NCBI GenBank assembly: GCA_002633005.1
Contig: NMRA01000474.1
Span: 275,409-339,408, forward strand
Source of the DNA: Phoronis australis
Lineage: Eukaryota > Animalia > Phoronida
Length of the DNA: 64,000 nucleotides
Direction: 5' to 3'
Positions 12,358-39,813 of the stretch are shown piece after piece; positions within the stretch are counted from its first letter, which is position 1, and each line of letters begins with the position of its first letter. The notes beneath the pieces are model-generated. The model was not told the origin of the DNA. It made no database searches and worked only from the letters and a program-made list of their open reading frames with translations. Made by a program: the position numbers and the translations under genes.

Positions 12358-12696
12358 TCAACGTGGCCTTCCATTAGGGAAGATTTCGGTGCACAATTGG
12401 CTATCACTGACGTTGATGTCGTCGTATATGGCCTCCATGCGGATTCCTTGTTCAACGGAACGAACGGCAATTTCATCAAAAGGCACAGTGTGGATGGGTG
12501 GCACATTCGGAAAAATAAATGTTTGCATTACGGCCACGCTGGCTTCATGTTTCTCGTCAGGCACGAAACCGGGACATCCGGAACTACCTTTACCAAAGTT
12601 TGAACTGGTTTTGTAAAGTGCTCGGCGACCATCACCGAACTTCGGGAATACGTCAAACCCAAATCTAGCTTGAGACCATTGCTTTAATTCGTCATG
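12358..12696 (-). CDS. ANK-protease exon 12 (last), catalytic Ser (LYKTSSNFGKGSSGCPGF)
   Basis: tatttcag|CATGAC...; Ser codon at 12580-12582; VEQGIRMEAIYDDI resembles the FAM111 C-terminal IE.G..M.SI..DI; ends TGA at 12360-12358. Confidence 0.9.
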   Translation of the reverse strand, partial: HDELKQWSQARFGFDVFPKFGDGRRALYKTSSNFGKGSSGCPGFVPDEKHEASVAVMQTFIFPNVPPIHTVPFDEIAVRSVEQGIRMEAIYDDINVSDSQLCTEIFPNGRPR

Positions 12697-15600
12697 CTGA
12701 AATAGACAAATGTCAAATATCTCTCCTAGATAATGAAGGAAAATTCTCTGAAAATCAATAAGACAATCAGAGGAAGCAATAGGTAGAAACAAAGACACTA
12801 CCTTTGCTATGAACACCAAATCCTCTAGACTTGACATAAAGCTGAAGCCATGTATGACTGATTGTCAAAATGCAGAGCTAATCTTCAATTTGCGAAACAT
12901 TATCTGTGTCTTTGTGACCCAGGGTTGCTCTATTGAAATTAGTTCAAGCTGAAACTGCAGGTATGAAAGGGATTGAAATTATAAAACAAACTATTGTTCT
13001 GTGTAAATTGAGAGTCTGGTGAGGAATTCAATTGTTGATGGCATATCTTGGTCGCAATAGGCCTACCGTTCTGCGAAAGTCTCTTGGCTCCATTTGCACA
13101 ACACTGCAGCTGACATCAGCAACTTTGTTTTTCCCGTCAGGGTGACCAGCAAAGTGAAGTTGTGTTTCTTTGTTAAGCTTCTTAAACCTAGTAAGAGGAG
13201 GTGGTAGCGAATCCAACTTCTTGCAGCCGCTTACTGAGAGAGGAAGATCTGCTTGTAGGTCCAATTTTAAAACGGCCATGTCCAGATCATCGTTAGAGTA
13301 CACTAGTGACCCCACACAGCTGCCAGCGGCTGGCCCAAGTCCCAGCAACGATGGTTTGTCGTAATAAAAGAGCACTGCACTGTTTCTGACTGCAACGAAT
13401 AAGGTGACACGTGTACTTAAGTACTTTGTAACATGTAATGCTAACATTAACTAACTTGTGAAACATTTGAAAGTAATTTTGGTTTCAGATAACAAGTTGA
13501 GTGGTTTTAAAAGTTAATTTTGAATGTTTGCTATTTTGGCGATTGATTATGGGACACTTCTTCAAAGTTCACAACGACGTCGTGTGCCAATAAACAACAA
13601 AGACGATTTTAGGAGGGGGGGGGGGGCAGGGGNNNNNNNNNNNNNNNNNNNNNNNNNNNNNNNNNNNNNNNNNNNNNNNNNNNNNNNNNNNNNNNNNNNN
13701 NNNNNNNNNNNNNNNNNNNNNNNNNNNNNNNNNNNNNNNNNNNNNNNNNNNNNNNNNNNNNNNNNNNNNNNNNNNNNNNNNNNNNNNNNNNNNNNNNNNN
13801 NNNNNNNNNNNNNNNNNNNNNNNNNNNNNNNNNNNNNNNNNNNNNNNNNNNNNNNNNNNNNNNNNNNNNNNNNNNNNNNNNNNNNNNNNNNNNNNNNNNN
13901 NNNNNNNNNNNNNNNNNNNNNNNNNNNNNNNNNNNNNNNNNNNNNNNNNNNNNNNNNNNNNNNNNNNNNNNNNNNNNNNNNNNNNNNNNNNNNNNNNNNN
14001 NNNNNNNNNNNNNNNNNNNNNNNNNNNNNNNNNNNNNNNNNNNNNNNNNNNNNNNNNNNNNNNNNNNNNNNNNNNNNNNNNNNNNNNNNNNNNNNNNNNN
14101 NNNNNNNNNNNNNNNNNNNNNNNNNNNNNNNNNNNNNNNNNNNNNNNNNNNNNNNNNNNNNNNNNNNNNNNNNNNNNNNNNNNNNNNNNNNNNNNNNNNN
14201 NNNNNNNNNNNNNNNNNNNNNNNNNNNNNNNNNNNNNNNNNNNNNNNNNNNNNNNNNNNNNNNNNNNNNNNNNNNNNNNNNNNNNNNNNNNNNNNNNNNN
14301 NNNNNNNNNNGGGGGGAAAGAAACTGGCCAATAGTGACGCAATATTTCATGGTGACGAAAGCCGACGCAGAGATAGCACCACAGCCTCATCAACAGAAAA
14401 AACATAGAATGCCAATCCGCCATAATTGTCTAAACTTCACATATATTAAGCAAAACAACATACCAAAGCGACTATTTAAACCTGGAAGATATATTTTTCA
14501 CCAAACAGTGTTTAACAGAAAGTGCGGGATTAGTGTTTTGGTGCAGGTTTCCTGTCCATTCCCGGGGTCCCTGGTTTAAATGCCAGAGTTCGAGTTTTTT
14601 CGGGTTGTATAGCCGTTTTGAAGGCACCTGTTTAATACCGAGTTACTGTCTTGACGGAACATCATGTTATTGTTATTAAATGAAATAAGACGGTCTCTAT
14701 CACGGCCATACATATGAAAATAACCCGCAGTGACAAGTAATATCCACGAGCCTGATTTGAGGCAATCACGAAGTGTCAGTTATTCTAGACCAGCCTTAGA
14801 TGGGATCAATTTCGTAAATGTTAAAGGTGACAAAAAGTTGTTTGTTACAGAAATAGCGAGTTTGTTGCGACGTTAAGGAACAGACGATTTCACCTTTTGT
14901 CTTGAAAATATAATGACTGAGTAGGGTGTTCTTGTTTCATATCAAAAACAATAAAACATTTATTGATAATTTGAAGAACATGCAAAGTTTTTCAGAAACA
15001 GTAACAGCATGTTCAGGGAAAGCATTTAAACTTTCTTTGGGAATTTATCCGCGTTTTAGTCACGTCAAGCAGGTAATGTATTAAAGGTAGTGAGTTCGTA
15101 AAGTTTGCTTCTGCTCTTACGAAATTCCCGGCATTTTCGTACTATATCAAGCACGTGTTTAACTTAAACTAGGTTCCTAGACTTAAAATAGTAGTAGGTT
15201 TGACAAAGCGTTATTCAACCAACAGTTCACCAATAATGGTGCACGTGACACTTACGATCATCGCCCAGTTGTTCAGCAACGTGCTTATTGGTCATGACGT
15301 AGTCAGGGCCAACACGGAAACCTGAACCTGTGCCGGTTTGTCCAACAATCAGAGCTACTGATGAAAAGGCTGTTGACAAAGATGTGAGGAAATGCGCCGA
15401 CATCGTCTCTTTGTTCCAATCAAACGCCAGACCGAAACTACACTGGGTTGGCTCTTTTCTGGGACTTTGTACAGGAAAGTAGTCTGAAAGAAAAGAATTG
15501 TCAAATACCCTTTTCCAGTATCATCACTGACCTCTTCAGTTACACCAAAGTGATGTGCATGTCTCCGTTATATTGTGTCACAGGTGTAAATGTTAAAACC

Positions 15601-18600
15601 ATCGAAACTTGTATTTAAGCTCAGGGAAATGTGCTACATCAAAGTCTTGCCTTCCCAAGTGGGCTTGCTTTACCATGTGAGACAAAAGCGAGTCAGGAAG
15701 TGGCGAGGAGATGATGTATTTGAAACCAATTTAAAAACGCTTTGCCATAAACAGACATCCAAAATCTTGACGAATAAACTGTAAAAAATACGTGGTGATC
15801 AAGTTGGATCCTGTTTTAGTGGCAGGGAACTGTACTTTGAATAGTGTAATTTAGCCTGTTTTTTGTTCGCCGACGACAATTTTACAGTGGAGCAGCCACG
15901 ATTTAGAAACCACTGTGGCCTAGATTTAAAAACAAATGCGGTTCTTTTGCAATGCTGGGAAACTCCGGGTGTATTGAGATTGACTGGGAATGTGTAAGAT
16001 GCAAATAAATCGACGTGGCGGTAGTTCTTACAGATTACATTGAGCTCCATTTATCTAACCTGTTGTAAGTAATTAGGTGATTGAGAACAGAGTGAGAAAT
16101 AATATAATGCATTAGACAAAACGAGCTTTACATGTATTTGGCATGTCGTTGGCGGATTTATTTATCAAACCTGAACTACATGAAGGCATTGGTAAGCACC
16201 GAGTCAGAGCACGTTACGTGCATCTCATAAGTATTGTTTGACCAATGGGCATTCTGCATAGGCAGATTTAGAGGGGGAAAGGGGCAGGGGGCCCGCCCCC
16301 TTGGCTGACGCAGAAAAAATAAAACAGCAAGAGCGTGACGAAATATTGAGTTCATTAAATAACGTGGTAATTAACCTGGGGCTGAAACAACATTTTGATG
16401 TGTTGAGGGTTCCCCGTTTTTTAGTCCCCCAATTTGATTCTTAGCAGAACCTCCGCTTACCCGAAAGTTTGAGCCCACCCACCCCTGGTTGCGCGCATGC
16501 AATCGTGCTTTGCGCGGTTGCCCCAGACAACATGTTGATATACCAGATCCGCCACTGTTCTGATATGTACAATGAAGCTACATTCACTACAACACCATGT
16601 ATCTGAACTCGATAGACACTCAGTCTTATACAGCTGAATGTTTAGACCTAGAACAGTGAGCAATACCATATTAGAATGCAGCCGGTGAACAAGCAAAATT
16701 GATTCATGTAGCAGTGTTTACCAGTGACACAATATCCCGCTAGATGTAAGTGGTATCACATATTGTATCAACTTATTCAATACACACTAACTGAATGTAT
16801 GAAATCAACATCTCATTTAGAGCATTAGGTGAATAGTACCGGCAAAACTATGTGTATGAATCACACCGATAACAATTCATAAATAATCTTACATTCCTAC
16901 GTGGCCAATAAAAGTCAAATTTGAAGATGATTGAAATTTTCTCTCAGTTAATGATTGTTCTGCTACTAAAGGAAAATGTTATCGCAAAAAACGTAGTTCC
17001 AAAATAAAAGCGGTATGTTATCACCATAAAGTTAGGTTCTACTATTGCAGGTCAAGAGTTTAAAGCCAGTATTTACGATTATACTTCATATACCTGATGG
17101 TCTGACGTCAACACCCAGAATTCCCAGTTCATTTTTGTCTCCTTGGTGTGCTTGTATATTTATATCTACATCCCCTTTGGGCACTGTTGCCCCGGAGGAC
17201 TCGAAGTAATAAGCAAGATATCTTCCAAGGCTAAAGTGCGGGTCAGCACTGGACCTGTTTTTGGCTTCAGCACCCTCAGCAGAACTCGCACGTTGGTTTT
17301 CCTGTCTTTGCTTCATTTGAATCTATACCCAAGTCAAAAACGACACAACCGCATTAACTAATTTATTTTATAACTGATGATGCTACTCTCTGCTCTGAAC
17401 ATCTATGTAATTCCTGAGTTAGCAATGGATAAAATGTAAATAAAAAACATGGTATTATTAAAAAATTATTAACAAACATGGTCACTTGACGAGTATCGTT
17501 TTCATCAGGTAAATAATGATTATTTAAAGAGTATTCAATGGTTAACAACACACATCCGTTTGAACCTAATTCTCAAGACAAAACTGACAAGTTATACTGT
17601 ACCTCAAGGAACCCCTTTAAGGTTTTAATATTTTCGGCGGCGGTCTTGTCAAAAAACACGCTACATTCTCTTCCACAAACATCATAAGCTGTTTCGCCTT
17701 CCTGAAAATTAACAAAATAGAGGTAAAGAATTAAAAAGTACATATAATTTTTCAGAAAACACGCAAAATGAGCATTTTTTTGATCTCGTGGTTCTTGGAT
17801 TCCGGCATGTTTCCGTCTGTATTTGTTCAGGGTCAAAATTTTAACCAAGTTTCAACGTGTGCCTCTTCTTTTCTCAAGAGTTACAGTTAATCTGGGTATA
17901 GGTCTTGACTTGGTGTGGTCGAATAGTGACACTCAGTGTCAGTTGTTTTACACCTGCGTCTGCGTTGCCTCTGTAAATGTTGGAAGAAGTGTCTCATTTC
18001 AAAGAACATTATACACGTGTTAGATGGGGTTCCAGTCGGGAGGTGTACTCCATAGGATTAGCAAACTGAGGTATGAACTTGTTAGATGGGGTTCCAGTAG
18101 AGAGGTGTACTCCATGGGATTAGCAAACTGAGGTATGAACGTGTTAGATGGGGTTCCAGTCGGGAGGTGTACTCCATAGGATTAGCAAACTGAGGTATGA
18201 ACTTGCTGACAACTTGTCCAGGACATCTTTCACTGTAGTCTACTGAGATGACATCAAAAGGCAGCATAAACTGACTGGGGTGCGGATGTCACCATGGCGA
18301 CCACGTGGTAAAAATGCTTTTATTTTTTGTTCAAACATTGACTTTTACCAATATTTGAACTCTCGCGTACATGTATACACGTAGATACTGTGCATTCCTG
18401 AACCTCCGTGGAAAACGGTTGGAAGTTACTTTAGACTTCTGTTGTTTACTGTCAGCTTGCATAATAACAACCTCCACCCAGCAGTAATGACCAACATCGT
18501 CCGATACAAATACATTTTTCATGGAAATTGTTAGGTACGCATCCAAAGTGTCTTCATGCTTCAAGGAAGGCTATTTACCGTGTTAAAGATGCGTGTTTGG

Positions 18601-21600
18601 GTAAAGGAAAAGGTATATAATCCTTAGCTATGGGGATTTAAACAGGTAATCAAATTTTCTAATAATTTATAACGCCCTTTTCCTTTATGGTCAGTACTTG
18701 GTTAACTAAATATTCATCACCTAATCAAATGACAACACCTAATGAATTACTGAATGTTGCACACAAAGCATCGTTAAAAGTACATTTCAACCCTAACAGA
18801 CGTTAATGTAGAAAAGCGGACATGTTGAATATTAGATAACATTTTTTAAAATAAAGGAAATGGTTAAGTACCGAAAGGATTTGATGATTCTATTACGTCA
18901 AACATTTGAGACCATAAATTGTAACGCGATTAAATATTTTTATTACAAAACATTTCCCATTGGCGATTGTTCCTGGTTTTACGCGTTTACTAAGTTTTAA
19001 GACTTCCTCATTCTCAGCAGAAAACATTATTTTCAAACTTGCTGAAGAATGATGCTAGGTCCAAGATCCGATAATCTCAAAATTTGAAACCAACGAATTG
19101 CACTACTCACTACATCGTTGAAATGTTAACAAACTTGTCAAAATTATTACAATTTGGTTTATTTCCAGTTCAAATACAAAAACTAATGTTGAAAATCATG
19201 CCCCTTTCATCTTTTCTGGAGATATCAAAGTTTTTGTCCAAACATTTACTTTTTGGGGTGTTTTGATTTCCGTGGAATCGGTTGTCCAGCCGACTTTTTT
19301 TACCAAAACGATAGTTGCATCAGGCGTTTGCTTCCTTGAGTCGTAGTAGTACCCGAAATAAGATGCTCTCATGAGAGGTGAACTTAATAAATTATCGTCA
19401 GATTAAAATGTTTAAGAAATTTGGACCTTTGTAATTATGTCATCAGGTATCTCGTCTAAATCCACGTCACGCATAGTGGTCTTTAAGTTTAACAAACTTT
19501 CTCATTCCAATCTACGACATAACGCGCTTTTAACCAAGTCCACCTATGAAGTCTTCGCAACATTTTTTTCCAAAAATAAATTACATTATTTTTTGAATCG
19601 GTGTTTTGTGTAAAACTATATCGATAGTCTTGTCATTGGGGATTTGTCTAATTCATATAATACATATATAGTATCTTTTCGAGTCCTATCAAGGCTAAAC
19701 GTGGTTTTCACAGCCTCAGTCTTGGTTGTTTGCTGCAGCATGACTTGAGATTTATACAGGTTGGATAGATCGCAGATATATTTATATACATGTATTTCAA
19801 AGTGATCAACTATTGCTGTCGTTGTCGCTGTAGTTTCTCAAATGCGTATCCACATTTTCCATGAGGTGCAACGGTTCCTTTGTGTTTTGTCGTTTCCTAT
19901 AAATTGTCCACGTTTTAGCTTACCTAGCAAACAAAATCAGAGCTCAAGGGTCTTTTCGTTATCTATTAATTATAGTTTCCCGCTTCAAAGCCATGTCAGA
20001 AACCCTATTGTTAAGGCTAAATGTCCGTCGCTTTACATTTATCAAATGTGTAAGAACAGATTTATGCACACGTTTCCGTGGTCCTGTCAAACGTTGTTAA
20101 AAGAAGTTGCCTATATATAGAAGATCCACTCACCAGAGTAATGCATTTTAAAAGGCTCCACAGTCTCACAAACACTGTACCATAGCTACAGTGTAACATA
20201 CATGTGCAACGGATCTCGTTGTATACATCCGGTCAAAGCTAAAGGCGTCTCTCCAATGGCAGAAATGTATTTTCGGAACGATGTTAGAATTGTTCTTTGG
20301 ACAGCAAAAAAATGGAAACAGATTAGGGATACTTGCACTCTGTAGTTGTAGTTCATTTCCAATATCTCAGATGAATTGATAAATAATCGAACAAAATATC
20401 TATTAACTACTGCTCACAAAACTGAACAATATGGTCCAAATGCCGAGTTCTTTCAATCTCCAGTTTTGTCGTTTTCTGATAAGGTTCCACATCACTTATT
20501 TAGGTTGTCATTATGCTGTTTCATAAAGGAGATGTTTGGACTGGTACGTTTGACATGGGTAATTTCTGATAACGTGGCCACCCACGCACATTAAGCGAAG
20601 ACCAATTAAAATTTGCCAAACAGGCACTACGAAAAAATAAGAACGATGAGAAAATGTGTTAGCTTTTGAACAAACTGATGAATTACATTCTCAAGCTCAA
20701 GTTTTTGCAACTAACGGATAAAACTGATTGACACAACACGAAGATGTGATTTGAACGAAAATAAAATATGGGGTGATATAGAAAGCGTGTTGTGTTTCGG
20801 ACAACTGAATACACCAACAGTCAGAAACAAATCAGATCGCATATTTATACACGTTTTATAAGAATCTGAAACAGACCCTGGATTTAGAGTGGATCAGAAA
20901 CGATCACTGTGCGCAAATTAGTCACACAGCGCTCTGCTTTTTCTGGGGTCTAACTTATGCAGACTTCTGGAACAGCGAAAACCGCACTTGTCTTTTCAAA
21001 AGGCTGGACTTTGACTAACTCACGCCCAACATTACTCCACCACAGAATATATCAAACAAAACATGGCAGGAACTTATTACACAGTAGTGCAATTGCATTA
21101 CAAACAAACCAAAAAATTACACGACTTTGAAATTTGGTTTTTAAAACAGTCGCTTTTTAAAGCAACCCTGACTAAAAAGTACTTGTAGGAAAATCAAAAT
21201 GTGTGCCTGTGTTGGGCGCCTTCCTCCGTGGTTGGTCTGTTTTTAGTTTGTGTACCGATTGTACGATCAGACGAGCAGCCTTGGTTTCGCTGCGTGTTCT
21301 GGGAAGGTACTTGCATTGAAGAAGTGACTCTATGTAACTCCAGTAAAGAGGTAGATCAGTTTTAATGAGATATTTATTATGAGTGAACAATTCCTCGAAA
21401 TCAATATTCATTTAAAACACATTTATTGCAGCATTAACTAAACTTGGAGTACAACACTCTTGAGATACCTTGTTTACGGCAGTCACGTCGCAGCTGCCAT
21501 TATGGACCAGCAGTTCCACGACTGCTGCCTGTCCTGTCTGGGAAGCTAGATGTACGGGTGTGTTTCCATCCTACAGTAAACGAACAAATATGATAGAATG

Positions 21601-24600
21601 CTGGTCAGCATCATACATAGCAAAGTGGGTGCGTCAACAGAGAGTCACGCTTAACACCTTTCAGAACTTCGCCTTCAGTTGCATACTTACTGTATGAAGT
21701 GGGTGACTCAACAGAGCACGACTACAACTGACATTTAAACTCAGACAAAAATGAGCGCAATTTCCTAAATGCTGATCTGTTGTAGTCACGCGACTGAAAA
21801 GATGATTTTAAATATCACAATTTGATGTTATATATTACAACAGAGCCACGATCATTTAGTGAGTGCTATGGTAATGCAAGTAAAGAACAAGTGCTCAATG
21901 TACAACTCCAGGTGAAGTGAAAACTGTTTCTAATAACATAATGTCACGAGCACGTCACGTCACGTGCGCGTCACTTCACGTGCCGTGAATTCAACGTTTA
22001 CAAACAAAATTACAATTTGTGATTATTTAATTAAAACACCCAATAATTCAACCTCGTCACGTATTGTGTGTTCATCAACCTGTGTGTCGTTAATTACCTG
22101 AGTACGGACATCCACTGTAGCGTTGTGTTCCACAAGACACTTCACTATCTGTGTATAACCACACCCTGCTGCACAGTGCAGCGGTGTCCGGCCCACCTAT
22201 GTAATATATAATGGAGATGTGTGAACGAACGATCAACGTTTAGAGCAAATTAACAAACACGGGGGAAAGTGAACTTGTAAGGTGACATAAATGAAACATT
22301 ACTGACCTCTCTAAGACGCAACAATACGTGTAATGATTTCAACAGGGAAATGTTGAGTTTAAGAACAAAACAACAGAGCGTGTTCAGTGTTCCGTCTCGT
22401 TACACGCTGATAACACACAGCAAGTAATTGTGCGCTGTAAAGTGTTGGACAATCAAAATAACGTAGAAAATATATCTGAAACTAAATGAGGCGATCCAGA
22501 TCGTCTGAAGGAAATTATTGTTTGACGAAATGTAGAATATATATAGGTAAATAAAACAACAATAATGAATCAACTGAAATGTTCGGATGCAGCTTTGACA
22601 GTTCTCTGTTGGAAAGCAGACGACATTTATTTTGACATTGTTTAAAGACATAAAATTGTGAAAAATATCAACAAAATTTGTTCTTCAATAGTTTTAATCA
22701 TCTCTTGTGTAAACAACTAATTCAACCAAACAACCTGTGTGTCATTAATTACCTGAGTACGGACATCCACTGTAGCGTTGTGTTCCACAAGACACTTCAC
22801 TGTCTGTGTATGACCACACCGTGCTGCCCAGTGCAGCGGTGTCCAGCCCCTCTATGTAATATATAATGGAGATGTGTGAATGGACGATCAACGTTTAGAG
22901 CAAACTAACATACACGGGGGAAAGTGAACTTGTAAGGTGACATAAATGACACATTACTGACCTCTCTAAGACGCTACAATACTTGTAATGATTTCAACAG
23001 GGAAATGTTGAGTTTAAGAGCAAAACAACAGAGCCTGTTCTGTGTTCCCTGTCTCGTTACAGGCCGGTAACACACAGCAAGTAATTGTGCGCTGTAAAGT
23101 GTTGGACAATCAAAATAACGTAGAAAATAAATCTGAAACTAAATGAGGCGATCCAGATCGACTGAAGAAAACTATTGTTTGACGAAATGTAGAATATATA
23201 TAGGTAAATAAAACAACAATAATGGATCAACTGAAATGTTCAGGTGCAGCTTTGGCAGTTCTCTGTTGGAAAGCAGACGATATTTATTTTGACATTGTTT
23301 AAAGACATAAAATTGTGAAAAATATCAACAAAATTTGTTCTTCAATAGTTTTAATCATCTCTTGTGTAAACAACTAGTTCAACTAAACAACCTGTGTGTC
23401 ATTAATTACCTGATCACGGATATCCACTGTAGCGTTGTGTTCCACAAGACACTTCACTATCTGTGTATGACCACTCCATGCTGCACTGTGCAGCGGTGTG
23501 AAGCCCCACACCTATGTAATATATAATGGAGACGTGTGAATGGACGATCAACGTTTAGAGCAAACTAACATACACGGGGCAAAGTAAACTTGTAAGGTGA
23601 CATAAATGAAACATTACTGACCCCTCTAAGACGCTACAATACTTGTAATGATCACTCAAGTTTTACAGGTGATTTTAAAACCTTGAAGTAAGAACAGAAC
23701 ATGGTGTAGAAGACAACTGCCAGAAATTACTGAGCGCCGCCATAACTTCACAGTGACCCCTCCATGTTGTGTTCATACACCGGTTTAATGGCTTCCTGTT
23801 CAATATAAAGTTGTAATGTTGAATGGACGCTTACCATTAAGAATAGAAAAATATCAACGTTAAGTCGCCAAATATATTGTTGACACAATTCAAACCTCAC
23901 TGTTTCTTAAGATGCATGTACCGGGTACAGATTGAAAATACATGTCGAAATCTTGAGAAATAAAAAGTGTATATACACACAACATGTTTAGTTAAACTTC
24001 AGATAGTTTACAGCTTTGTAACAAAGATATCACTGTCTTAATTATAAAATCGTCTCAAGTAGTTTCTATTACCCCGTCTTGCTTGTTGACGATAGCGCCT
24101 GCTTCACACAAAACACGCGCCACCTCTGTATGTCCCAGCCCTGCTGCACTGTGTAGTGTTGTCCAGCCCTGCAGAAACAATGAACAAGTTATAGCAAACT
24201 TCACAATCATTAACTTCACCGTGAATCTTAATTACTCATCATGGAAACGTTGAAATAACACATTTGCACACAAAATTACTAAATCTACTCTCTGCTTACC
24301 ACATAATATATCAGTTGTCGTTGGAATGGATCATCAATTTTAGAGAACAAGGTTACGTCGCTCATGTAGAACGTTTGTTAGTTTCAGTAATAATCCTCAG
24401 ATTAAAGACATGACATGTTCTTTAAAAATATGGACACTTTTATAAAAGTCCGACTTACGACTGGTTGTAGCTAAGACAAGCTATCACTGTTATTGTCATT
24501 AACGTGACCTTGATATTTAAACTTAAAAATTTATCATTTTAAGAGATCAATTTTTCGAGAGATCAAGGCAAAAGTATTGTTAGTGTATATGAAAACTGCA

Positions 24601-27600
24601 ATTATATGGGTAAAGCTTACATGGTCGTCTGGTTTTCTTTAATTAGTAGGTCTACCCCAAACCAATCCCTGCTGGAGGCATGAATTGAAAAACATGATCA
24701 AACTAATTTGTAAAGTCCAGTTTCACTTTTTTCCTGAGGTCCAAAATAATTTCTAACAAATTAAAGTCAGGAACAAACAGAAATAGAAGGAAGAGAGAAA
24801 ATCAATATAGGGTAAATTCGCCATTGGCATAGGATATTATCAAAACGCAACTGAAGTATGAAGTTTTTCATGGAAAAAAATGCAGGGCAATCCTTGGTAA
24901 AGGGTCTGTTACTGGTCAGGAACTAAACACATTTCAACTTATAAATGGCATCCAACAAAATCCAAGCAGGCAAAACGTTCAGGAAAAGAATAAAGAGTTC
25001 TCTACAAATTAAACGCACGTTGAAACACATTTCACCAAAACCATTCTTCTTGTCAAGATTGCTGTTCAGAAATCCAATCAATCATTTGTCTCCCACAAAT
25101 TGTTCTGCTATTCTTGAGACGACGTGACAGCGGTCTGGACAGGCGAAGCGTTGCTTTTAAAAAGAGCGCTTTTCCAGACAGTTTTCGCGTGTACACGCGA
25201 TAAATTGATACATTAGTCAGTTCTTGAATATATTTAAAGGGGCATTTAATAATCGCAAGGAACTAATTAAAGAGAGCGTGACTAACCAAATAAAAGGTGT
25301 TGCAATTTGTTTTTTTTAACTCTCGTTTGACCCTTTTACAATCAGACGTTCAAAATGGTGTTTCGGCGTTTATACAACTTTCTATATTGCAACTAAAAAT
25401 TTGAGATTTCTGCTGATTTACTTTATTCAACATTTCGCTTCAGAGTGGTGCGTAAAGAGGGAAATGTCAAAAATATATGGTCTCAGAGAATATGCAACGC
25501 TACAATCACGGCTGATTTGATGACAAGCAAACAAGGAATACAAAAATTCAACAACTTGAACAAAAGCCGCAATTTCAGGTTGCGTCTCAAGTAGCCGAAT
25601 GCCATTTGGATCCGACGGCCACTTGGACAAAATATAGAAAGAAATACGGATAGATAATGTGTACAATTGGAAAATATTGCGCGGTAGAACAATAGCAGTC
25701 ACCACAAAAAATACAACATGTTGCACTATCAAACAATTGAATACTAGAAAAATATCTGAATAAATCTTTAAAATTCCATTCTTTATATAAAATCACCCAG
25801 TAGTACAATGCGTCACGTGTACACCAGTCCATCTATTAATAGAACAAAATCTGGAAATCAATAATTAGACGTACACTGGCACGTCAAAACTGTACTTCAT
25901 TTCACTAAAATTTAAAAACTCGATACACGTTTGAGCAATAAAAATGTGGCCTGATTAAAATCAAGCAAGCGTCATTGCTATCATTTTAATTGTTTTGAGA
26001 AATATTTATTAAGCTCGCCGTATATTAGTGACGTTTAGAACAGAGCATCGAGATCAAATAACAAAATTAGGCCTACATGTAGGTCGCTTTCGCTTACATA
26101 ACAAGTGCAATTCCCAGACACGACTGTTCTTTGGTGACCTGCTCTAAGGTAATATTCACTCGTAGTGATTAATTTCATAATCCACTTTCATCAACTGAAT
26201 GCCCGTTAATCTTTTAAATACGGCAGCGCAACCATGACAAGAATGTTTCTATTTTAAAAATAAAGTTACATCGTTACCGTTAACTAACTGCTACTATTGA
26301 ATTCAGTCTCCACACGTCAGAATGATGCAATAATACTACTCTACACACCCAAATTCAATTGAAAGCTCAGGTTTTGACCTCTCGTGTCAAGTCAAACTGT
26401 GCGACCTGAAATTTCAAGCATAATGCGTGCTGAGTTTGTGTCTCTACACTTCTACCGACTGATACCTTGGAAATATGAAAAAACTCATGTGGGTCCGGCC
26501 ATTAGTTAGTTGTTGCCAAAGCAAGTTCGAAAGAACACTAACACATGCTGTGAACAGACATGTATCGCGTGAACATGAAATAGTGCAGATTCGATCTTTA
26601 AATCGTTTCGTCGACTAGTATTTTTGACTACTTTTGAAAATTTTCGGATGCGCCTAAGAAAGTTCTGCACCCCGGAAGAACAATTTAAAAAACGGTACAA
26701 AACAGCAATGTTTCCAATAATTCTGAAACGATCAACGTAACTAGCGTTGTGGTGAAAAACATATCAATTTTTCTTGTAAAATGTCCAAATTATCGAATTA
26801 AAATATCCCAGGTCCTATCGCATTTTTAAAACTGCTTGGTCAAGTTATTTACGCGCACGGTCGTGGTCCCACCAGAGAATCATTATTCGGAATATTCGCG
26901 TACAGCAAGCGATTTTTTTTGCTCCCCGGGTACATTGTAGTCAGCCGACTACAAATACGTCACTGATCTTTACTGGTGTAAAACTCGCTTGGAAGGAATA
27001 CTGTTCCGAATGAAACATCAGCCAAAGGAAATTAGAATTGCGGGTGTCTAAAAAGCTGTAAGTATTAACGATATCCAGGCATTTACGCTTTGCTGGTGTG
27101 CGACGCACAAAAATATAGTATTACAAAAGTTCTTGCTACTGCAATCAATTCTCAGTTCGGCAATCATTCACAACAACGGCAACACTCAAATTTGCGCCAA
27201 ATTCCATATCTTTGAAATTTTTCGGAACAAGCGCGCACTGCTCTACTAATCGCAACCCATAACATTTGAAAAACTTCAATAAAACGCCAACAGCTCTGGC
27301 AAGCGCCCAACCGTTGTTTGACTCACTAAAATTGGTTTTCAAAACTGCATAATGCGAAGTAACCCTAGCAACATGCATGCTGGGGTCATGTGTCGTTTTG
27401 AGTCTACCTATTTTGTGGAATAATTATGTGACACGTACAGTGTATTTCTCGTGCTCAGGAAACAAATCTAATTACCCGATAATGGAAACCCGCACGGAAT
27501 GGTTACTATTTGGAAGCTAGTTATGATATGAAAAACTAATGTCTGAAAACGTAAACAGTATAAGCCACATAAATGTTGTAGTGATATTTGAACTGAATTG

Positions 27601-30600
27601 GTCCTGATGATCGATCCGTTGGTTTGACAATTGTTGTCATTTTAAGAAATTGAACCAAAAGTAATACAAATTCTGTCCCAAATCGATAACGTTAAATGCA
27701 CAATACGTCATTCGGCTAGGAAAAATTTAAGCGGTTTTGTTTATCGACAGGATTTTTCAATCGTGTGAGTCGCAAAATTTGAAGAGCAAACAAATTGAAG
27801 AAGCTTGCACTCATAGTTACAGGGTATATCTTTGCTTTTTAACGACTTTGATGACAGTCATACCGTAGATCAATAACAAAAGAGTCCTGGATATTTTTTC
27901 AATGAATATTTTGTTCAAGTTTACGGTCAATACTTGCTTACCGGAAAGCACGTGGCTGTTTTAGAGCACGGATTCAATTTTCACGTAGGCTTGCGACAAG
28001 TACTTAGAACTTGCAAAAGGATGTGTCATAGCATGGCAGATGTATAAAGCCCTTACGGGAACGTCAGGCAGCACAGATTTGATTTGCATTGCAACATGCG
28101 CATCCAGGGCTTTTCAATAGCTGTAGAGAAAAACAATTTCATAAAACATTAAGAATTCAATCTCGCGGCCTAAAATTCGGGAATACCTACATCAGAGGAA
28201 AAGGCAATATTTAAATATTTTCTCCATTGGCTAGAATCAATTTGGCGCATACAATTTGTGGGTAATTTTTGCGAGCTGGAATTCGTGTAGGGAGCTAGAA
28301 ATTTGGTTTCAAAGGTAGCAAAATGCAATTGTAAGGCGAGTTATCATTATCTTTGCTTCTACCATGACCAAAATGTTACGTACTGTCTAAGAATTTGAAC
28401 AATTGCTTGGATAAAAAAAATTGAACAAATGATACACCAAAAACAAGCAAAAACAAGCAAAAACAATGCTTTTACTCATGCCCTAAAGCAAATAACCCAG
28501 AATATTAGACTTTGACCTAATACTAGAGTATCAAAACATAGTTTTTATTCCTTTACTGTGAAGCATCTACACACCGTGTATGGTTGTGGTATCTGTGAAT
28601 GAGATCTAACATGAATTTACCCCACAAGACTTGATCACTGTGGATTAACAAAAGTTTTCCTTATCCAAGTACGTTTTAGTTAGTTTTTTAAATAAATGCG
28701 ATAATGGTTATGTTCAATCCACCCATATCATATACAAAACTGACGCCACCTTTCTAAGCAGAATCAGGTGAAGAACGGACACTGTGAAAAAAGACACACC
28801 AACTTTTGTATTAACAAAACATACAACCATAACACTACTGGGTACCGGTAGCAGCATTTTAGACCAACAAGCAGTTGCTTTATCAATACTGCAAATAATA
28901 TCATATCACCTTGAGCACTGAATTTTAAAAGTGCACTAATTCGCACTATAACGTAACTTACGGTCCGTAGGCGCTACGTTTAAATGCCAAAAGGCGGTTG
29001 GCTGCGCTTACGTGCGCTAACACCCAACTACAGCACTAAATTAGACACAGGGTGCCTTGTCTGCATCTGTGGTCAATTGGAAAAAAATCAGAAAAAAACA
29101 TGTAGGATACAAAGCTTTGAAATTTCTTACAGTAATTCAAATCACCTTCTAATAGTGTTTCCAAAGTTCACAACATAAAAATGAATCATTTTTCACAGTC
29201 CGATTTGTACCAGTAGTCCAAGCGTATCTTGTTGAATAAATAATACATTGTATTATTATCTCATATAAAATGAGGCATGTATTTTCCCCAATAAAACTCG
29301 TTCAGCAACAACACCTGAAAAACTTAGGTCTATTAATTTAAGAGAGAACTGACAATTATCAACTTATCACGATACTCTTTTTAGGAATAACTCAAGATAA
29401 AGTTTGACTGATTCTCTGAGTCCCTTGTTTTGTTAGCTTACAGTGCTCCGTTAACAAAAGTTCCAATACATTGGAATCCATTGTATGCAAGATTTCACAT
29501 TTCCAAAACATCTCCTACTTCCTACACAATTATTTCCCGGTCCATTTTTTTCGAACTTCATGTGATTTTGGAAGGACAGTTGCCGATGGGGTTGTCTACG
29601 CACCTGTTGAACCCCCTTGGCTACAGTAATGACCCTTAGTAGGCTCATCTCATACTAGTCCTTGTTCGACGCACAACTAACATTGGTCAGCAAGATCGCA
29701 CAAATTAATGAAGCCTAGTAAGCTATATCAAGCTTTCACTGAACGCTATACAGCACATTATGCTCCACGAACTCAGTTTGCGTACGCACACGTTGAAACA
29801 AATTTTACCTAAAATAACATCTTTTTCTGTTCAAGATCTCTATCCAGTCAATGATGTCGACACAAATGCATACCCTAAATTTTTAATGTACGCAGTTCAG
29901 TGAATTGAAACGGAATGACCAATCGCAATTTCAAAAAAGCAGCGCTTTGCTGCCAGGCATCGATACATTGGCATTCATCGATCACGAAGAAATTCTAATA
30001 ATTATTTGGGTGCACAGTTACGATAGGGCCTTTTTAAAAGTATTTTCTAATATGCAGGACCTAAGTTTCAGACTGAAGCTGAAAATAATTATTCATCTGA
30101 AGTACCGTAATATGAATTACATGCATGTATAGTGTACTACGAATTTCACAAAAATGCTAGAAAATCCCAGCAATTAAAAATGACGTCATTGTGAGCACCA
30201 GATTCAGGATGAGCGAATCTAAGGGACCTCGGTCACGCAAGCGCAGTGGCCTTGAAGAAAGATTTGTTGACAGATTTTTTATAAATTACCTTCAGGTTTA
30301 TCTCAGGATATGTTCAAATTCTGTCTGATATATTTTTTATCAGTTAGACGGAAATCCCGAAAAATTTTCCAAACGTCTTAGCGGACTGTGCCGTTACACC
30401 AAAAGGAATGCCGATAAGTTTCTTATTTTACATTTATTTGACGGTCACGTTTGCAAGTGTCTATGGTTCATACACACTGCTCGAAATTTCAACTATATAA
30501 GCACGATGTTATTACTTTTTCCAAGCGTAATATTTGCACAGTTGTTATTTGAAACGCGCCGGTGAAACGTATATTTGCCTCTTATTATTTTAACGAACAA

Positions 30601-33600
30601 TTCCCCAAGTGGTGCGCGTTAAAACCAGCATTCAATATATTAACGAGATAAATTAACCCTTTCATCAAATCAGTTGGTCTATATCATGTCATGTACTTGA
30701 AACTGGTTAATTTTGGATGGGTTTTTCAATATCTTCAAAATTGGTTGCATTCTGATTTTTTCGTATTTGCTCGACCTATGTTAATATGCTTGTGCAATGA
30801 TATTATATCGTGGTTGCAGAATGGTTTGAGACAACTGTTGTGTCATTGCTTTACCAGAGTGATAATAAAATCTTACTTAAATGACAGACAGAGCATCTAC
30901 TATGCTGAAGAATGGGATACCGTAGCAGGAGGTCGCGTCACCTAGGGGGAACTCTTATAACGAAACTGCATTTTAGGAATGAACCAGTTGTGCATGAAAG
31001 AAATTGGAAATTAATACGCCCAGATCTTGAATGCAGCAAACCGGAACACTATTATCTACGACAACAAAAGTGATTGCACCGACTATGTAACGAATAGAAT
31101 AAGTAAAATAACATAAAAGATGTGCCTCGATCCGCCGAACACTCAGTTATTCAACGAAATTCCACTAACAGGAACCTATCCTACTATTTGAAACTTGGAT
31201 TATGGTACCCAATTAGCAAACAATTGAGAATCACTGCTGTGCTGTAACACTTCAAAATTCTTTCTTTAAATTGGGCATTGAATGAAATGTACAATTGCAT
31301 CACTTTCTATAAATTGCAATAAATTACCAACTTCGCCTTGACTTGATGAATGAGAAGAGTACCGTCTCTCACCTGTACGAAACTGTTCACGGGATACGAT
31401 AATAATATGGAAAATGGGTATAATGTTAGATAATCAATCCGCGTTTGACACAGTTTCACAAGACCCCTTCTTGTACAAAGTTTTCTCTTATCCAATATCG
31501 GACACTCTGCACACACTCCGCACTTTATACTTGTAAATTAACTCTATCCATCCAATCGGGTAGTAGGACTAGACAGTGTGTTTTCAAAACCCTCACTCCC
31601 CGTCTTTGTTTACGTAGGGGTATCGAAAGCTGATGTCCTATTTCTACTCTTCATCAATCATGACAGACATGAGCTCCAAAACCATCCATGACATAATCAA
31701 TGGTAAAACGTCTGATACAGCCGAATTTTATACAAATCTCAAAAACATCCCAAAAGCCTTTCTTTCCAACTACAGTTGAAACTTGGTTCCACTCAGGGCT
31801 CGTAATAAGCACATGGAAGCTTCAAGGCTGAGATAAAGTGTTGATCTTACATTTTCTAGATGCCTCCATTTCAAACTAACACAATCTTTATCTGAATCCG
31901 CATGGTGAAATTATTCCCCAAAACATTTGTAAAGAAATCTAGTCATGATAGTTGATGATGAAATGTCATTTGAACCACAGTGTCAAATCCGTGTGCAAAA
32001 AAATCAAATTCTAATCAACCTACTGAAATTCGTTCATGCAAGTTTCAAATCGTTTGGTACCTACAAACGATTTGAACATTTTGACTATGGTGAGATAATC
32101 CACCAAGTCGTGTAGATAGTGCGAGACCTTTGCTTGAGCTACACAAAGTATCATAAAAAGCTTGCAATAACCAATGCTGGTGTCATGAAAGGGTCTAACA
32201 CAGTAAGTGGTCCAAAATGTCATTGTGTTGAAAGGTATTAGCAGCTCAAGTTCTTAACAAAGTAAAGAATGTATTACGAAATACAAAAGTCAAAAACATC
32301 ACTCGATCTAGGTACAGTTCAAGAACGCTAGTACATGCTATGCCCTTCGCGAGATTACGCCGTGTATTTTAAACAAGACCATGTGAATTTGGACAGTTTT
32401 TCCAACCCGCAAAACAGCTACACTGAGAACTCTACTAGGGTTTCTCTTGTCGCACATTTTTCTTATTTCCACCATCTTACAGTCGAGCAACTAGTAAATC
32501 CACAATTACCAAGGCATAGATGCAGGTCACATCCTCTCATAAAAATGATATGCCGTAATTAAAATTTCATTTTCACAAATGCTTTTGCGAAAAGAATAAA
32601 ATTATTCTTCCTACAGTCGTATACCGCCGTACAATAACAAAGGAAATCTGTCAACAGATTTAGGTCAAGATTATTGCTAAACTCTGAAAAATTCAGACAC
32701 ACTTTTCAAAATATGTCTTCCCGGTGCGCCTGCGGATCTGTCCAAATTGGTCTGTTTCTAATGCTTTCGTAGATCGTTTGCGTGATCCTTGTTGCGGATC
32801 CTGGAGACGGTCGACGATATAACAGATAAAATTAATAGTATTCCACGGCAGATTGGTAAATACATCTTGTTAGTAACTGATTCTCATGACTAGCCCAATG
32901 GCGTCTATTAAGTGCTACTTAGTCAATTTCTCTATAGTATGTAACCTGTCTTATAATTGCTGTTCGTAGGACTCGGTCATGATTTCATTGTATTTTTCTC
33001 ACCGACATACGTGTGCTGTTAAGGCAAGTTAAGAAAAAACGTCTGTTTTATATCTAAACTTCCGTAGCTATACATGTACTTGTATGTGAACATTTTGTTA
33101 TTACTGTTTTGTATTGTTACCACGATTTTGACATGTCGCTTTGGTTAACAGTTTACAGTGTTCATACATGTATATACTATTCAACATAAAATTAGGAAGG
33201 CAATGCCAATCGTGATGAAGTTCTTAAGACAATGGATGTGTAGAATTGTTTTTAACAAGGTGCATTTCAAGTCAATGATGATCAGACAAGTGTTCATGTG
33301 TAAATACTCACCGACCGACCCAGCGCTTGGTCCACATCCCAACCACGGTTTACATACTCCAGTAGAGTAGAACAGTCACCTTTTTTGGCGGCTGTTCTAA
33401 CCTGAAAATAATAACAAATAAATTTTAAATCGAATGGTGTACATTCATTACCATTACGAACTCAATTTTACAAAAAAGTGCTCCTTAGATGATATGAACA
33501 TTGAGGGACTAGGGTCGGGGTTGTTCCTGGGTCTTGATAATGCAGACCATATGAAATACTCTTCGCAAATTTTGGCTCTTGTTCATATTAAAGCTTCCTA

Positions 33601-39600: not shown

Positions 39601-39813
39601 GTAAAGTCACGCTGATCGTCGACATAACGCCGCGGGTTAATCAATCAAACTTCAAAAGCCCGCCCTAAATAAACATATTCAGCATACAAGATTTCAACGA
39701 CTATGACAGGGGAGGGGCGAAAAGATGATTGAAATGATTTCTGAGAAAACTCTCACCTTTTCCAATTCTGCCTCATCGAGTTGTAAACGACATGATTCCT
39801 TGTTAGATGCCAT
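12358..39813 (-). CDS. Ankyrin-repeat / FAM111-like trypsin-fold serine protease fusion protein, 12 coding exons, about 620 aa
   Basis: Exons 39813-39757, 33401-33312, 24168-24073, 23511-23410, 22851-22753, 22196-22098, 21570-21469, 17701-17603, 17322-17094, 15483-15256, 13389-13067, 12696-12358. All introns are GT-AG with compatible phases; total 1863 nt = 620 codons + TGA, no internal stop. Ankyrin G.TPLH.AA..GH..IV..L repeats precede protease motifs TNKHV, DLDMAVL, GHPDG, GSSG.PGF and VEQG..MEAI. Confidence 0.88.
13067..13389 (-). CDS. ANK-protease exon 11, catalytic Asp (SNDDLDMAVLKL) and GHPDGKNKVADVSC
   Basis: cgttgcag| ... ACG|gtaggc; 323 nt, phase 1 to 0; LD.A.L.L and GHP.G..K..D..C resemble FAM111 proteases. 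Confidence 0.9.
13633..14310. other. Assembly gap (678 N) flanked by G-runs, inside intron 10 of the ANK-protease gene
   Basis: Run of N with poly-G on both flanks. Confidence 0.99.
15256..15483 (-). CDS. ANK-protease exon 10, protease N-terminal part with catalytic His (SVALIVGQTGTGSGFRVGPDYVMTNKHVAEQL)
   Basis: ttctttcag| ... C|gtaagt; 228 nt, phase 1-1; G.GF.V....VMTN.HV trypsin-like motif, His codon at 15281-15283. Confidence 0.9.
16257..16557. mobile_element. Short hAT-like non-autonomous element (MITE)
   Basis: Left end CATAGGCAGATTTAGAGGGGG and right end AGATCCGCCACTG (reverse complement CAGTGGCGGATCT); GC-rich subterminal blocks; no clean TSD. Confidence 0.5.
17094..17322 (-). CDS. 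ANK-protease exon 9, linker (IQMKQRQENQRASSAEG...LGVDVRPS)
   Basis: ggtatag| ... G|gtatat; 229 nt, phase 0 to 1, open frame; bridges exons 8 and 10 in phase. Confidence 0.75.
17603..17701 (-). CDS. ANK-protease exon 8, C-cap ankyrin-like repeat (EGETAYDVCGRECSVFFDKTAAENIKTLKGFLE)
   Basis: taattttcag| ... GAG|gtacag; 99 nt, phase 0-0; the NK|EGETAYD junction completes a typical terminal repeat. Confidence 0.85.
18017..18204. repeat. Tandem repeat, 62-bp unit x3
   Basis: GTTAGATGGGGTTCCAGTCGGGAGGTGTACTCCATAGGATTAGCAAACTGAGGTATGAAC recurs at 18019, 18081 and 18143. Confidence 0.95.
21469..21570 (-). CDS. ANK-protease exon 7, ankyrin repeat (DGNTPVHLASQTGQAAVVELLVHNGSCDVTAVNK)
   Basis: tttactgtag| ... 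AAG|gtatct; 102 nt, phase 0-0. Confidence 0.9.
22098..22196 (-). CDS. ANK-protease exon 6, ankyrin repeat (VGRTPLHCAAGCGYTQIVKCLVEHNATVDVRTQ)
   Basis: tacatag| ... CAG|gtaatt; 99 nt, phase 0-0. Confidence 0.9.
22753..22851 (-). CDS. ANK-protease exon 5, ankyrin repeat (RGWTPLHWAARCGHTQTVKCLVEHNATVDVRTQ)
   Basis: tacatag| ... CAG|gtaatt; 99 nt, phase 0-0. Confidence 0.9.
23410..23511 (-). CDS. ANK-protease exon 4, ankyrin repeat (VWGFTPLHSAAWSGHTQIVKCLVEHNATVDIRDQ)
   Basis: tacatag| ... CAG|gtaatt; 102 nt, phase 0-0. Confidence 0.9.
24073..24168 (-). CDS. ANK-protease exon 3, ankyrin repeat (GWTTLHSAAGLGHTEVARVLCEAGAIVNKQDG)
   Basis: tttctgcag| ... |gtaata; 96 nt, phase 0-0; canonical ankyrin consensus. 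Confidence 0.9.
30900..33150 (+). mobile_element. Highly decayed non-LTR retrotransposon (CR1/L2-group) RT remnant in intron 2, antisense to the host gene
   Basis: Fragmentary motifs in the expected order: GTYPTI (~31170), AFDTVSQ (31441-31461), LFLLFIN (~31640), DDEMSFE..VKSVCKKI (~31953-32008). Boundaries approximate. Confidence 0.55.
33312..33401 (-). CDS. ANK-protease exon 2, N-cap ankyrin-like repeat (VRTAAKKGDCSTLLEYVNRGWDVDQALGRS)
   Basis: tattttcag| ... |gtgagt; 90 nt, phase 0-0; AA..GD...L.....G.DV ankyrin pattern. Confidence 0.8.
36030..36900. repeat. Diverged ~347-bp direct repeat (about 2 copies) studded with GTAGTGTACGTACCC motifs; probable DNA-transposon subterminal region
   Basis: Approx. 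36188-36533 aligns with 36534-36881. The motif recurs at about 36032, 36188, 36204, 36367, 36534, 36552, 36712, 36882 and 37584. Confidence 0.7.
38711..39111. mobile_element. PIF/Harbinger-type MITE (401 bp) in intron 1
   Basis: About 43-bp TIRs GGCCCGGTCTCCAATCTTTTTACTCGAAATGAAACTCGAAATTA vs TAGTTTCGAGTTCGTTTCGAGTACAAAGATTAGAGACCGGGCC; 3-bp flanks CAG/TAG. Confidence 0.75.
39472..39481 (+). promoter_or_regulatory. Consensus NF-kB site GGGAAATTCC in intron 1, next to a GC box (39448-39454)
   Basis: Exact match to GGGRNWYYCC, about 280 bp into intron 1; motif evidence only. Confidence 0.35.
39757..39813 (-). CDS. ANK-protease exon 1 (MASNKESCRLQLDEAELEK)
   Basis: ATG in accATGG context; ends AAG|gtgaga in phase 0 and reads directly into VRTAAKKG of exon 2. 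Confidence 0.7.

Follow-up and report, generated by a model that had tools for sequence, protein, structure and literature searches.

The 64,000-nucleotide stretch of Phoronis australis DNA analysed here (the window) carries on its minus strand a gene whose model joins five ankyrin repeats to a predicted protease. The gene is expressed and spliced, and RNA reads support the model. On balance, we favour the reading that it is one of about ten sister genes that vary at the DNA level, and that its product would act as a cytosolic defence sensor-protease.

Gene model and predicted protease domain

The spliced model encodes 620 aa with no internal stops (Table 1). The earlier note had described seven ankyrin-type exons of 90–102 nt, all in phase 0. 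Size and phase were borne out on the minus strand, with AG/GT borders and phase 0 at the start and end of every exon; the ankyrin assignment held for five of the seven, which passed the Pfam Ank (PF00023) cut-off (29–43 bits vs 21.1). The first and last returned no Pfam match at E≤10 and did not align in BLASTP with the internal exon against which each was compared, and their position suggests that they are cap-like. All 128 of the 128 possible combinations of these exons stay in frame without a stop, so any subset could be skipped without a frameshift, as had been claimed.

Table 1. Features of the ankyrin-protease gene model and its tandem array (window positions)
Feature	Position	Strand	Remarks
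First coding exon	39757..39813	-	ATG at 39813; 19 aa; phase-0 end; no internal stop in model
Exon 2, cap-like	33312..33401 (90 nt)	-	no Pfam match; last five codons are the loop before the first repeat
Ankyrin exon X	24073..24168 (96 nt, 32 aa)	-	Pfam Ank E=9.3e-07
Intron X-A	23512..24072	-	sense-strand RNA coverage; read-through stop at 24055, after 5 codons
Tandem ankyrin exon A	23410..23511 (102 nt, 34 aa)	-	Pfam Ank E=3.9e-10
Tandem ankyrin exon B	22753..22851 (99 nt, 33 aa)	-	Pfam Ank E=2.8e-11
Tandem ankyrin exon C	22098..22196 (99 nt, 33 aa)	-	Pfam Ank E=9.4e-10
Ankyrin exon Y	21469..21570 (102 nt, 34 aa)	-	Pfam Ank E=3.3e-09
Read-through extension of exon Y	21394..21468	-	18 codons; stop 21412; AATAAA 21427-21422; RNA ends 21394
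Exon 8, cap-like	17603..17701 (99 nt)	-	no Pfam match; each of the four RNA sources has joints 17700-21468 and 17322-17603
Linker exon	17094..17322	-	phase 0 to 1; joint 15483-17094 in 8/14/13 reads
Protease exon 1, His392	15256..15483	-	Trypsin_2 E=0.016, profile 1-20
Protease exon 2, Asp437	13067..13389	-	Trypsin_2 E=0.19, profile 41-96; loose RNA ends before 15256
Last coding exon, Ser547 (G-S-S-G motif) and stop	12358..12696	-	spliced model; Atlas matches
Tandem duplication	22076..23652	.	2.4 units of 655-657 bp, ~94% identical
~130-nt very high-copy genomic repeat	22456..22590	.	inside tandem unit; second copy 23113-23247; two copies in window

Three tandem units of ~656 bp had also been proposed. 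The three exons and their common splice contexts (acceptor tacatag, donor CAG/gtaatt) are present as described; the array itself amounts to two full units (22076-22730 and 22731-23387) and a 265-nt partial one (23388-23652). Its two full introns align over 532 columns with 24 mismatches and 2 gaps, and the ~130-nt repeat within the unit reaches summed contig depths of 87,487 and 163,918 in bins of the DNA run X1, on both strands and with loose ends at its borders. The chance of eight phase-0 introns, counted as about six independent positions, is p ~0.001–0.016 if phase-0 frequency is assumed to be 0.33–0.5; duplicating a single symmetric exon would, however, yield just such a common phase. 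One-repeat-per-exon layouts are already known (PMC11378527, PMC6642158), and the available portions of PMC1266365, PMC1553488 and PMC8195603 contain no statement of a one-exon-per-repeat ankyrin layout or of an animal ankyrin-trypsin fusion. Using tblastn with the exons and the model, we found no further family members in the 64-kb window, and its 14 other ORFs gave a single, sub-threshold Pfam match.

The C-terminal domain is a predicted trypsin-fold protease, on the basis of sub-threshold Pfam scores, Atlas leads and motifs. A catalytic triad can be assigned by motif, in order, to H392, D437 and S547 (H385/D439/S541 in FAM111A), with a His-to-Ser distance of 155 residues compared with 156 in FAM111A (PMC9798293). 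Scanned exon by exon, the first two protease exons scored 16.3 and 12.9 bits against Trypsin_2 (PF13365; cut-off 27.6) and are collinear on the profile, while the third returned no Pfam or PDB match. All 10 PDB rows at E≤10 for protease exon 1 are proteases (best E=0.27), protease exon 2 has Atlas matches to Trypsin/Trypsin_2 (best 0.91) and the last coding exon to serine protease/Trypsin clusters (0.92–0.93); hence, each of the three points to the trypsin clan. The intron upstream of protease exon 2 holds a 678-nt N gap (13633-14310). No FAM111 chain appeared among the matches in three PDB searches, so orthology to FAM111 is not established.

Nal1_C and NAL1_N were not listed for any exon at E≤1 (Pfam, single exons), and no NACHT, NB-ARC or Roc-COR domain was found in the model (11 of the 12 coding exons scanned, the twelfth being the 19-aa first exon). 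Among longer proteins, relatives of the single protease exons numbered 0 of 67, 101 and 44 candidates. Metagenomes returned 0 matches to a 22-nt exon pattern, and none of the 264 pattern matches in another metagenome scan was confirmed. The sole HMMER library match, of a single exon to a bacterial TIG-repeat protein, was judged spurious and unrelated.

Neither a signal peptide nor a membrane helix is predicted in the 620-aa product, which has a hydrophilic N-terminus and a maximal 19-residue hydropathy of 1.43. Given also its trypsin-fold end, the term receptor, used in the earlier note, would mean a cytosolic sensor-protease.

Transcripts, copies and repeat order

The RNA evidence comes from runs of the same species, with samples from individuals other than the one assembled. 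Sense-strand reads and the GT-AG joints 15483-17094, 17322-17603 and 17700-21468 were present in X5–X8. Loose ends before 15256 read as protease exon 2 (28 reads in X7, 102 in X8), and a loose end behind 33403 matches the first coding exon with one mismatch (two contigs of X5, compared by eye); the joint of the last coding exon to the previous one is taken from the gene model and is not covered by RNA joints. Run X3, labelled 'DNA?', holds exon-exon joints and was treated as probably RNA and excluded from copy-number use.

Many transcripts end 28 nt past the AATAAA behind the last repeat, with 7 molecules in X6 and 13 in X8 beginning at 21394 and a depth at 21466 of 44/28/18 vs 9/7/13 spliced reads. 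This early 3′ end is predicted to give an ankyrin-only form. Sense-strand depth over intron X-A (~120–260 in X8, 20–57 in X6) can be read as a retained intron or a long last exon in some copies. Exon B was 4–11 times deeper in RNA than the first protease exon, so sister copies need not all carry the protease.

In X1, DNA depth was 55.8 at 20900-21161 vs 425–1174 at six ankyrin-block sites, a 7.6–21-fold difference (4.9–13.5-fold with 86.8 as the baseline), although summed contig depth is no copy number. Two single X1 contigs, at depths of 190 and 256, depart from the window sequence at 13 and 7 letters, and at four of the six sites no contig has the window's own letter, so X1 may not fully hold the window haplotype. 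These data suggest that the ankyrin block, introns included, lies at 8–21 times the single-copy level, and the gene is likely one of about ten similar family members, the repeats of which differ chiefly at the binding surface, as would suit an immune sensor. The read-depth check proposed earlier thus indicated a multi-copy block, but the repeat number per gene is not countable from 151-nt reads or collapsed contigs. Since the block appears multi-copy in DNA, RNA variants in loop residues and repeat order probably stem from sister genes or alleles.

Several repeat orders absent from the assembly were found in RNA, namely B-B (2/5/37 reads), C-B (0/2/0 reads and two contigs) and A-A (27 reads in X8). 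Among the joints listed (15 of 118 and 15 of 114), none is an exact skip joint of this locus, and those that fall within the repeat block all show ends that are not splice sites, differing letters at the joint or letters that are unknown. Of the two routes to variety that had been anticipated, isoforms and copy-number alleles, what stands is that sequence and repeat order vary across the species' transcripts, whereas the listed joints are without an exact skip.

Amino-acid changes of the tandem exons cluster at binding positions

In codons 2–33 of exons A, B and C, each of the 12 variable bases alters the amino acid (probability of seeing no silent change, 0.037). Four of the six positions randomised in a designed ankyrin library (PMC4308713) fall among the nine variable codons (p=0.034). 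At codons of the published binding positions, 6 of 15 bases vary vs 12 of 160 shared intron bases (p=0.0014; three exons only), while the other codons vary at the intron rate (6 of 81 bases, p=1.0). The overall non-synonymous rate did not differ significantly from the intron rate (p=0.06 for three exons; p=0.21 for B and C alone). A first binding-face set (6/9, p=0.0017) had been picked after the data were viewed and was replaced by the published set.

One-base deletions at 22816 in RNA are balanced by insertions of one base at 22820/22821 (57 vs 34+23 reads in X8, 10 vs 7+3 in X7 and 13 vs 7+4 in X6), amounting to frame-keeping changes at repeat positions 13–14. Joints between exon 2 and exon X (24162/24169 to 33314-33326) carry several different letters between, and contigs of X5, decoded by hand, gave four other loop sequences, a count that leaves out two 17-letter X8 variants one codon short. 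The earlier note did not mention two sources of variety seen here, namely amino-acid substitutions on the binding face and transcripts ending before the protease exons.

Under the favoured reading of about ten varying sister genes, unequal crossover or gene conversion would have duplicated whole-exon units and swapped them, both inside a copy and from one copy to another, with phase 0 keeping every exchange product in frame, and selection would favour novel residues at the binding face. Target binding may cluster the protein and switch on its protease, much as dimerisation activates FAM111A, and the ankyrin-only form may serve as a decoy or a partner. Exon skipping could also occur, though the data can be explained without it. 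Skipping of any subset of phase-0 repeat exons as the source of many isoforms from one locus, as in NLRP3 or brown-algal ROCO genes (PMC6642158, PMC11378527), appears improbable. All subsets are in frame, and unit-jumping joints were seen at 21572-22761 (1/0/5 reads), 22195-23413 (2 and 3 reads) and 22852-24079 (0 and 3 reads); however, each carries other letters, which points to exon versions differing from this locus. Moreover, no listed joint with exact CT..AC ends (30 of 232 listed) skips a repeat, and skipping cannot produce joints that go back, though an allele whose exon is closer in sequence to the adjacent position than to its own can give such joints too.

A single locus with copy-number alleles, in a very polymorphic species in which all RNA variety is allelic, is likewise unlikely. 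Most RNA reads are 90–95% alike (985/2066, 967/1892 and 2048/3563), unit-sized jumps occur in X1 contigs (22316-22975, 658 nt; 22915-23590, 674 nt) and near-identical repeats accompany length polymorphism in Podospora (PMC13449251). Yet X1 depth is also raised over the non-tandem exon X, intron X-A and the region behind exon Y, with 20900-21161 at single level, a pattern poorly accounted for by alleles of one locus; the letters between the unit-sized jumps are not known, and the jumps may be register switches in sister copies. We also give little weight to a neutral reading, in which an otherwise ordinary ankyrin gene underwent a recent tandem duplication and the block, spread passively through segmental duplication or by a mobile element, plays no part in defence. 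Phase 0 follows from duplicating one symmetric exon, a very high-copy element lies inside the tandem unit, intron X-A is retained in many transcripts or their ends come early, as decaying copies would lead one to expect, and the global test of non-synonymous change gave p=0.06. Against this, the changes are concentrated at binding positions and spare silent sites, the indel-like RNA variants keep the frame, and a full reading frame with three intact catalytic residues is expressed.

A bolder extension of the sister-gene reading is tentative: a previously undescribed animal 'DARPin-protease' family, in which some ten or more genes would trade single-repeat exons and vary only the binding face, with the early 3′ end releasing an ankyrin-only decoy or partner. 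Such a family would constitute a renewable intracellular sensor repertoire that cuts its target or a death effector on binding.

Comparison with known systems

The question addressed is how organisms without antibodies match changing pathogens. DNA-level reshuffled repeat arrays are already described in brown algae and fungi; if the favoured reading is true, the gene would represent a new sensor-effector pairing, an ankyrin array with a FAM111-like protease, varying where protein engineers randomise. Should only the layout be real and the copies neutral, it would be ordinary exon duplication.

The brown-algal LRR-ROCO and NB-ARC-TPR candidate immune receptors (PMC3341825, PMC11378527) are alike in placing each repeat on its own symmetric exon, in duplicating and shuffling exons, in having an effector domain behind the repeats and, under the favoured reading, in ligand-face selection and a multi-gene family. 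They differ in having LRR or TPR repeats, phase-2 LRR exons and a GTPase or NB-ARC effector rather than ankyrin repeats, phase 0 and a protease, and alternative splicing is reported for them, whereas none of the joints listed here (30 of 232) is an exact skip. Fungal HNWD and ANK-type NLRs with high internal conservation (PMC13449251) likewise have near-identical repeats with a few hypervariable binding positions, and exchange between paralogs; unequal crossover is proposed for them. Unlike in these NLRs, there is no NACHT or NB-ARC domain here and the repeats lie on separate exons, their introns duplicated along with them; long reads demonstrated length polymorphism in the fungi, while repeat number is not countable from the short reads used here. 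Human NLRP3 and other exon-modular LRR NLRs (PMC6642158) share the exon modularity that is the precondition for in-frame skipping, but there skipping is demonstrated and removes a binding surface, whereas truncation here is by an early 3′ end.

With FAM111A and FAM111B (PMC9798293, PMC10920703), the predicted product shares an intracellular C-terminal trypsin fold (Trypsin_2), triad spacing (155 vs 156) and the lack of a signal peptide. FAM111A/B proper have two UBL domains and, in mammals, a PIP box (PMC9798293), neither of which was recognised here, where an N-terminal ankyrin array stands instead; invertebrate FAM111-like proteins are also described as lacking UBLs (PMC9798293). Finally, the arrangement is reminiscent of designed ankyrin repeat proteins (PMC4308713, PMC8683736), in which an N-cap, internal repeats and a C-cap form a constant scaffold with varying positions 3, 5, 10 and 13; those are artificial libraries, whereas the array described here is natural and fused to a predicted enzyme.

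Gene model and the predicted protease end

Addition of an ATG exon and four downstream exons gave a spliced model of 620 aa with no internal stops; hydropathy analysis revealed neither a hydrophobic N-terminus nor a clear membrane helix (highest 19-residue value 1.43). Its long introns with GT-AG ends suggest an animal source. The last three exons each point to the trypsin clan: two are collinear along the Trypsin_2 profile, both under the cut-off (E=0.016 and 0.19), a PDB search at E≤10 listed ten rows, every one a protease (lowest E=0.27), and the Atlas neighbours, taken as leads only, are Trypsin, Trypsin_2 or serine-protease clusters (0.91-0.93). Motif placement put the catalytic residues at His392, Asp437 and Ser547, a His-to-Ser distance of 155 versus 156 in FAM111A (PMC9798293). 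Because sequence searches with single exons as queries found no relatives, the putative FAM111-like assignment denotes likeness rather than family membership.

Coordinates of added, protease and tandem ankyrin exons
Feature	Position	Strand	Remark
ATG exon	39757-39813	-	added to gene model
First downstream exon	17094-17322	-	added to gene model
First protease exon	15256-15483	-	trypsin-clan signals
Second protease exon	13067-13389	-	trypsin-clan signals
Last coding exon, third of trypsin-clan exons	12358-12696	-	trypsin-clan signals
Exon A	23410-23511	-	tandem ankyrin exon
Exon B	22753-22851	-	tandem ankyrin exon
Exon C	22098-22196	-	tandem ankyrin exon

RNA data under the same species label, comprising three raw runs (X6, X7 and X8; 18-19% of each sampled) and one contig set (X5), were mapped to 15100-33500, short of the final joint (13067-12696). 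The exons are covered on the sense strand. Joints with GT-AG ends were found at 15483-17094 (8/14/13 reads in X6/X7/X8, the order used throughout), 17322-17603 (16/9/14) and 17700-21468 (9/7/13), and loose ends agree with the ATG exon as well as with the second protease exon. As these connect stepwise, splicing of repeat exons to protease exons is established joint by joint, with no single read covering both.

An assembly gap (13633-14310, 678 N) lies inside a protease intron; the flanking exons are in frame without it, and their direct joint has read support. A second gap lies at 43307-43725 (419 N). An alternative start of the first protease exon (15447-15483), with 36 other letters, occurs in X5 as well as in 30 X8 reads versus 13 window-like reads, and may represent another allele or a protease-bearing sister gene. 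Run X3, labelled 'DNA?', contains exon-exon joints and intron sequence and is probably RNA. Elsewhere, broken minus-strand reading frames (200-934) resemble a retrotransposon pol region, and a cysteine-rich minus-strand ORF (8082-8369) ends in a CxC-type cluster, typical of large marine-invertebrate transposon-like genes; Pfam searches of both returned no match.

Ankyrin exons and variation at the binding face

Seven minus-strand exons lie between 17603 and 33401 (90, 96, 102, 99, 99, 102 and 99 nt), each flanked by AG/GT and in phase 0 where it starts and where it ends, and all 128 computed subsets remain in frame without a stop. Five pass the Pfam ankyrin cut-off; the first and last gave no Pfam match and, judging by position, we infer that they are caps. 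Exons A, B and C lie in a tandem duplication (22076-23652; 2.4 units of 655-657 bp, ~94% identity) and share the acceptor tacatag/ and donor CAG/gtaatt. The earlier note's description of a cassette was thus right in sizes, phase and splice contexts; its numbers were not, there being five true repeats rather than seven and 2.4 units rather than three.

Comparison of A, B and C revealed nine variable codons; codons 2-33 contain 12 variable bases, each of which alters the encoded amino acid (P of no silent change=0.037). The scaffold of a designed ankyrin library is randomised at positions 2, 3, 5, 10, 13 and 33 (PMC4308713), four of which vary here (p=0.034). In these codons 6/15 bases vary versus 12/160 intron bases common to the three units (p=0.0014); the remaining codons vary at the intron rate (6/81 bases, p=1.0). 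The overall non-synonymous excess over the intron rate was not significant (p=0.06), nor was any excess between B and C alone (p=0.21).

RNA variants are independent signs alongside these differences. Single-base deletions at 22816 have their counterpart in single-base insertions at 22820/22821 (X8, 57 vs 34+23; X7, 10 vs 7+3; X6, 13 vs 7+4), and therefore reflect multi-base changes that keep the frame in exon B codons 11-12 (22816-22821; repeat positions 13-14). Where exon 2, a cap-like end, joins exon X, the ankyrin exon upstream of the array, the window reads ALGRS-GW, and hand-decoded X5 contigs (among 12 of 225 rows listed) read ELNWM-GW, VLNSS-GW, ALSDL-GW and ALGRW-GD. At 24092 in exon X the window has A (Ile) versus T (Asn) in 11/11 contigs of the DNA run X1, 128/128 X6 reads and 425/445 X8 reads; the A may be a private variant or an assembly error.

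Several repeats were also seen. A ~130-nt element within the tandem unit (22456-22590 and 23113-23247; X1 summed depth 87,000-164,000; reads from both strands) could be a starting point for ectopic recombination among copies. The intron from exon Y, the ankyrin exon downstream of the array, to the C-cap exon holds a 62-bp minisatellite (18018-18205); others are of 67 bp (40953-41354), 27 bp (46295-46554) and 42 bp (50519-51256). The 9-kb intron contains a dispersed repeat (28950-29035) that has coverage from either strand and is flanked by loose ends on each side.

Sources of variety

The earlier note proposed exon skipping and unequal crossover as routes to variety, a reading that the data support in part. 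All exon subsets do keep the frame, and skipping of modular exons is established for NLRP3 (PMC6642158); however, B-then-B (2/5/37 reads), C-then-B (0/2/0 reads and 2 contigs) and A-then-A (27 X8 reads) orders, which are not in the assembly, cannot arise by skipping. Unit-jumping joints (21572-22761, 22195-23413 and 22852-24079; 0-5 reads per run) carry other letters where they join, and therefore derive from exon versions unlike the window locus. No exact skip joint of that locus was found among 15 of 118 and 15 of 114 joints listed, although rare ones may exist. We consider skipping an unlikely main source of variety.

Alleles of a single locus seem similarly improbable. In X1, contig depth sums to 55.8 over 20900-21161, where a single contig with one difference lies, and to 425-1174 at six block sites, unique introns included. 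The ratio of the latter to the former is 7.6-21, or 4.9-13.5 if 86.8 is taken as a second baseline. Since summed contig depth is not copy number and the window's own letter is absent at four of the six sites, this suggests only roughly that the ankyrin block is present in about ten copies. The window letter at 23774 accounts for 42.6 of 991.5, and single X1 contigs of depth 190 and 256 are 13 and 7 letters off the window. With a multi-copy block, RNA variety is not assignable to isoforms or alleles of the window locus. Jumps of about one unit in X1 contigs (658 and 674 nt, intervening letters not known) fit unit loss, mosaic units and sister copies equally. Neutral duplication is likewise doubtful.

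Early 3′ ends provide a route to variety absent from the earlier note. Depth two bases into the intron 3′ of exon Y is 44/28/18 versus 9/7/13 spliced reads, counts that are not strictly comparable. RNA molecules end at 21394 (7 in X6, 13 in X8), 28 nt after an AATAAA (21427-21422), and read-through adds 18 residues before a stop at 21412. Contig pieces 21343-21481 and 21194-21336 show that homology of the sister copies extends beyond 21394, which makes a homology border an improbable cause of the pile-up. At the exon Y donor, 15/44, 11/28 and 0/18 read-through reads have a 2-nt deletion. Together, these data predict an ankyrin-only product that lacks both the C-cap and the protease, in part from altered-donor copies. 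Exon B RNA depth, 4-11 times that of the first protease exon, fits such transcripts, differently tailed sister genes or more repeats per transcript. Intron X-A has sense-strand coverage of ~120-260 in X8, with a read-through stop after five codons.

Proposed mechanism and comparison with known systems

On balance, we lean towards a predicted diversifying sensor-protease family; the exon layout, its expression, the recent duplication, the bias in amino-acid change, the variants in RNA and the early 3′ ends were observed. Symmetric exon-plus-intron units would duplicate and swap within and between copies, phase 0 would leave every product in frame, and selection would renew the binding face. By analogy with FAM111A, the activity of which requires dimerisation (PMC10920703) and for which antiviral roles are reported (PMC9798293), target binding would be predicted to cluster the protease. 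The main text of the latter review does not mention 'ankyrin', and no ankyrin and Trypsin_2 fusion was found among the papers listed, which is weak evidence of absence.

A Pfam scan of 11 of the 12 coding exons, the twelfth encoding 19 aa, found no NACHT, NB-ARC or Roc-COR domain, placing the gene outside the ROCO-LRR/NB-ARC-TPR and fungal NLR groups. Its organisation is reminiscent of both: the brown-algal ROCO-LRR and NB-ARC-TPR genes are likewise described as having one repeat per exon, shuffling and binding-face selection (PMC3341825, PMC11378527), and fungal NLRs, as in the present gene, combine near-identical repeats with a few hypervariable positions (PMC13449251).
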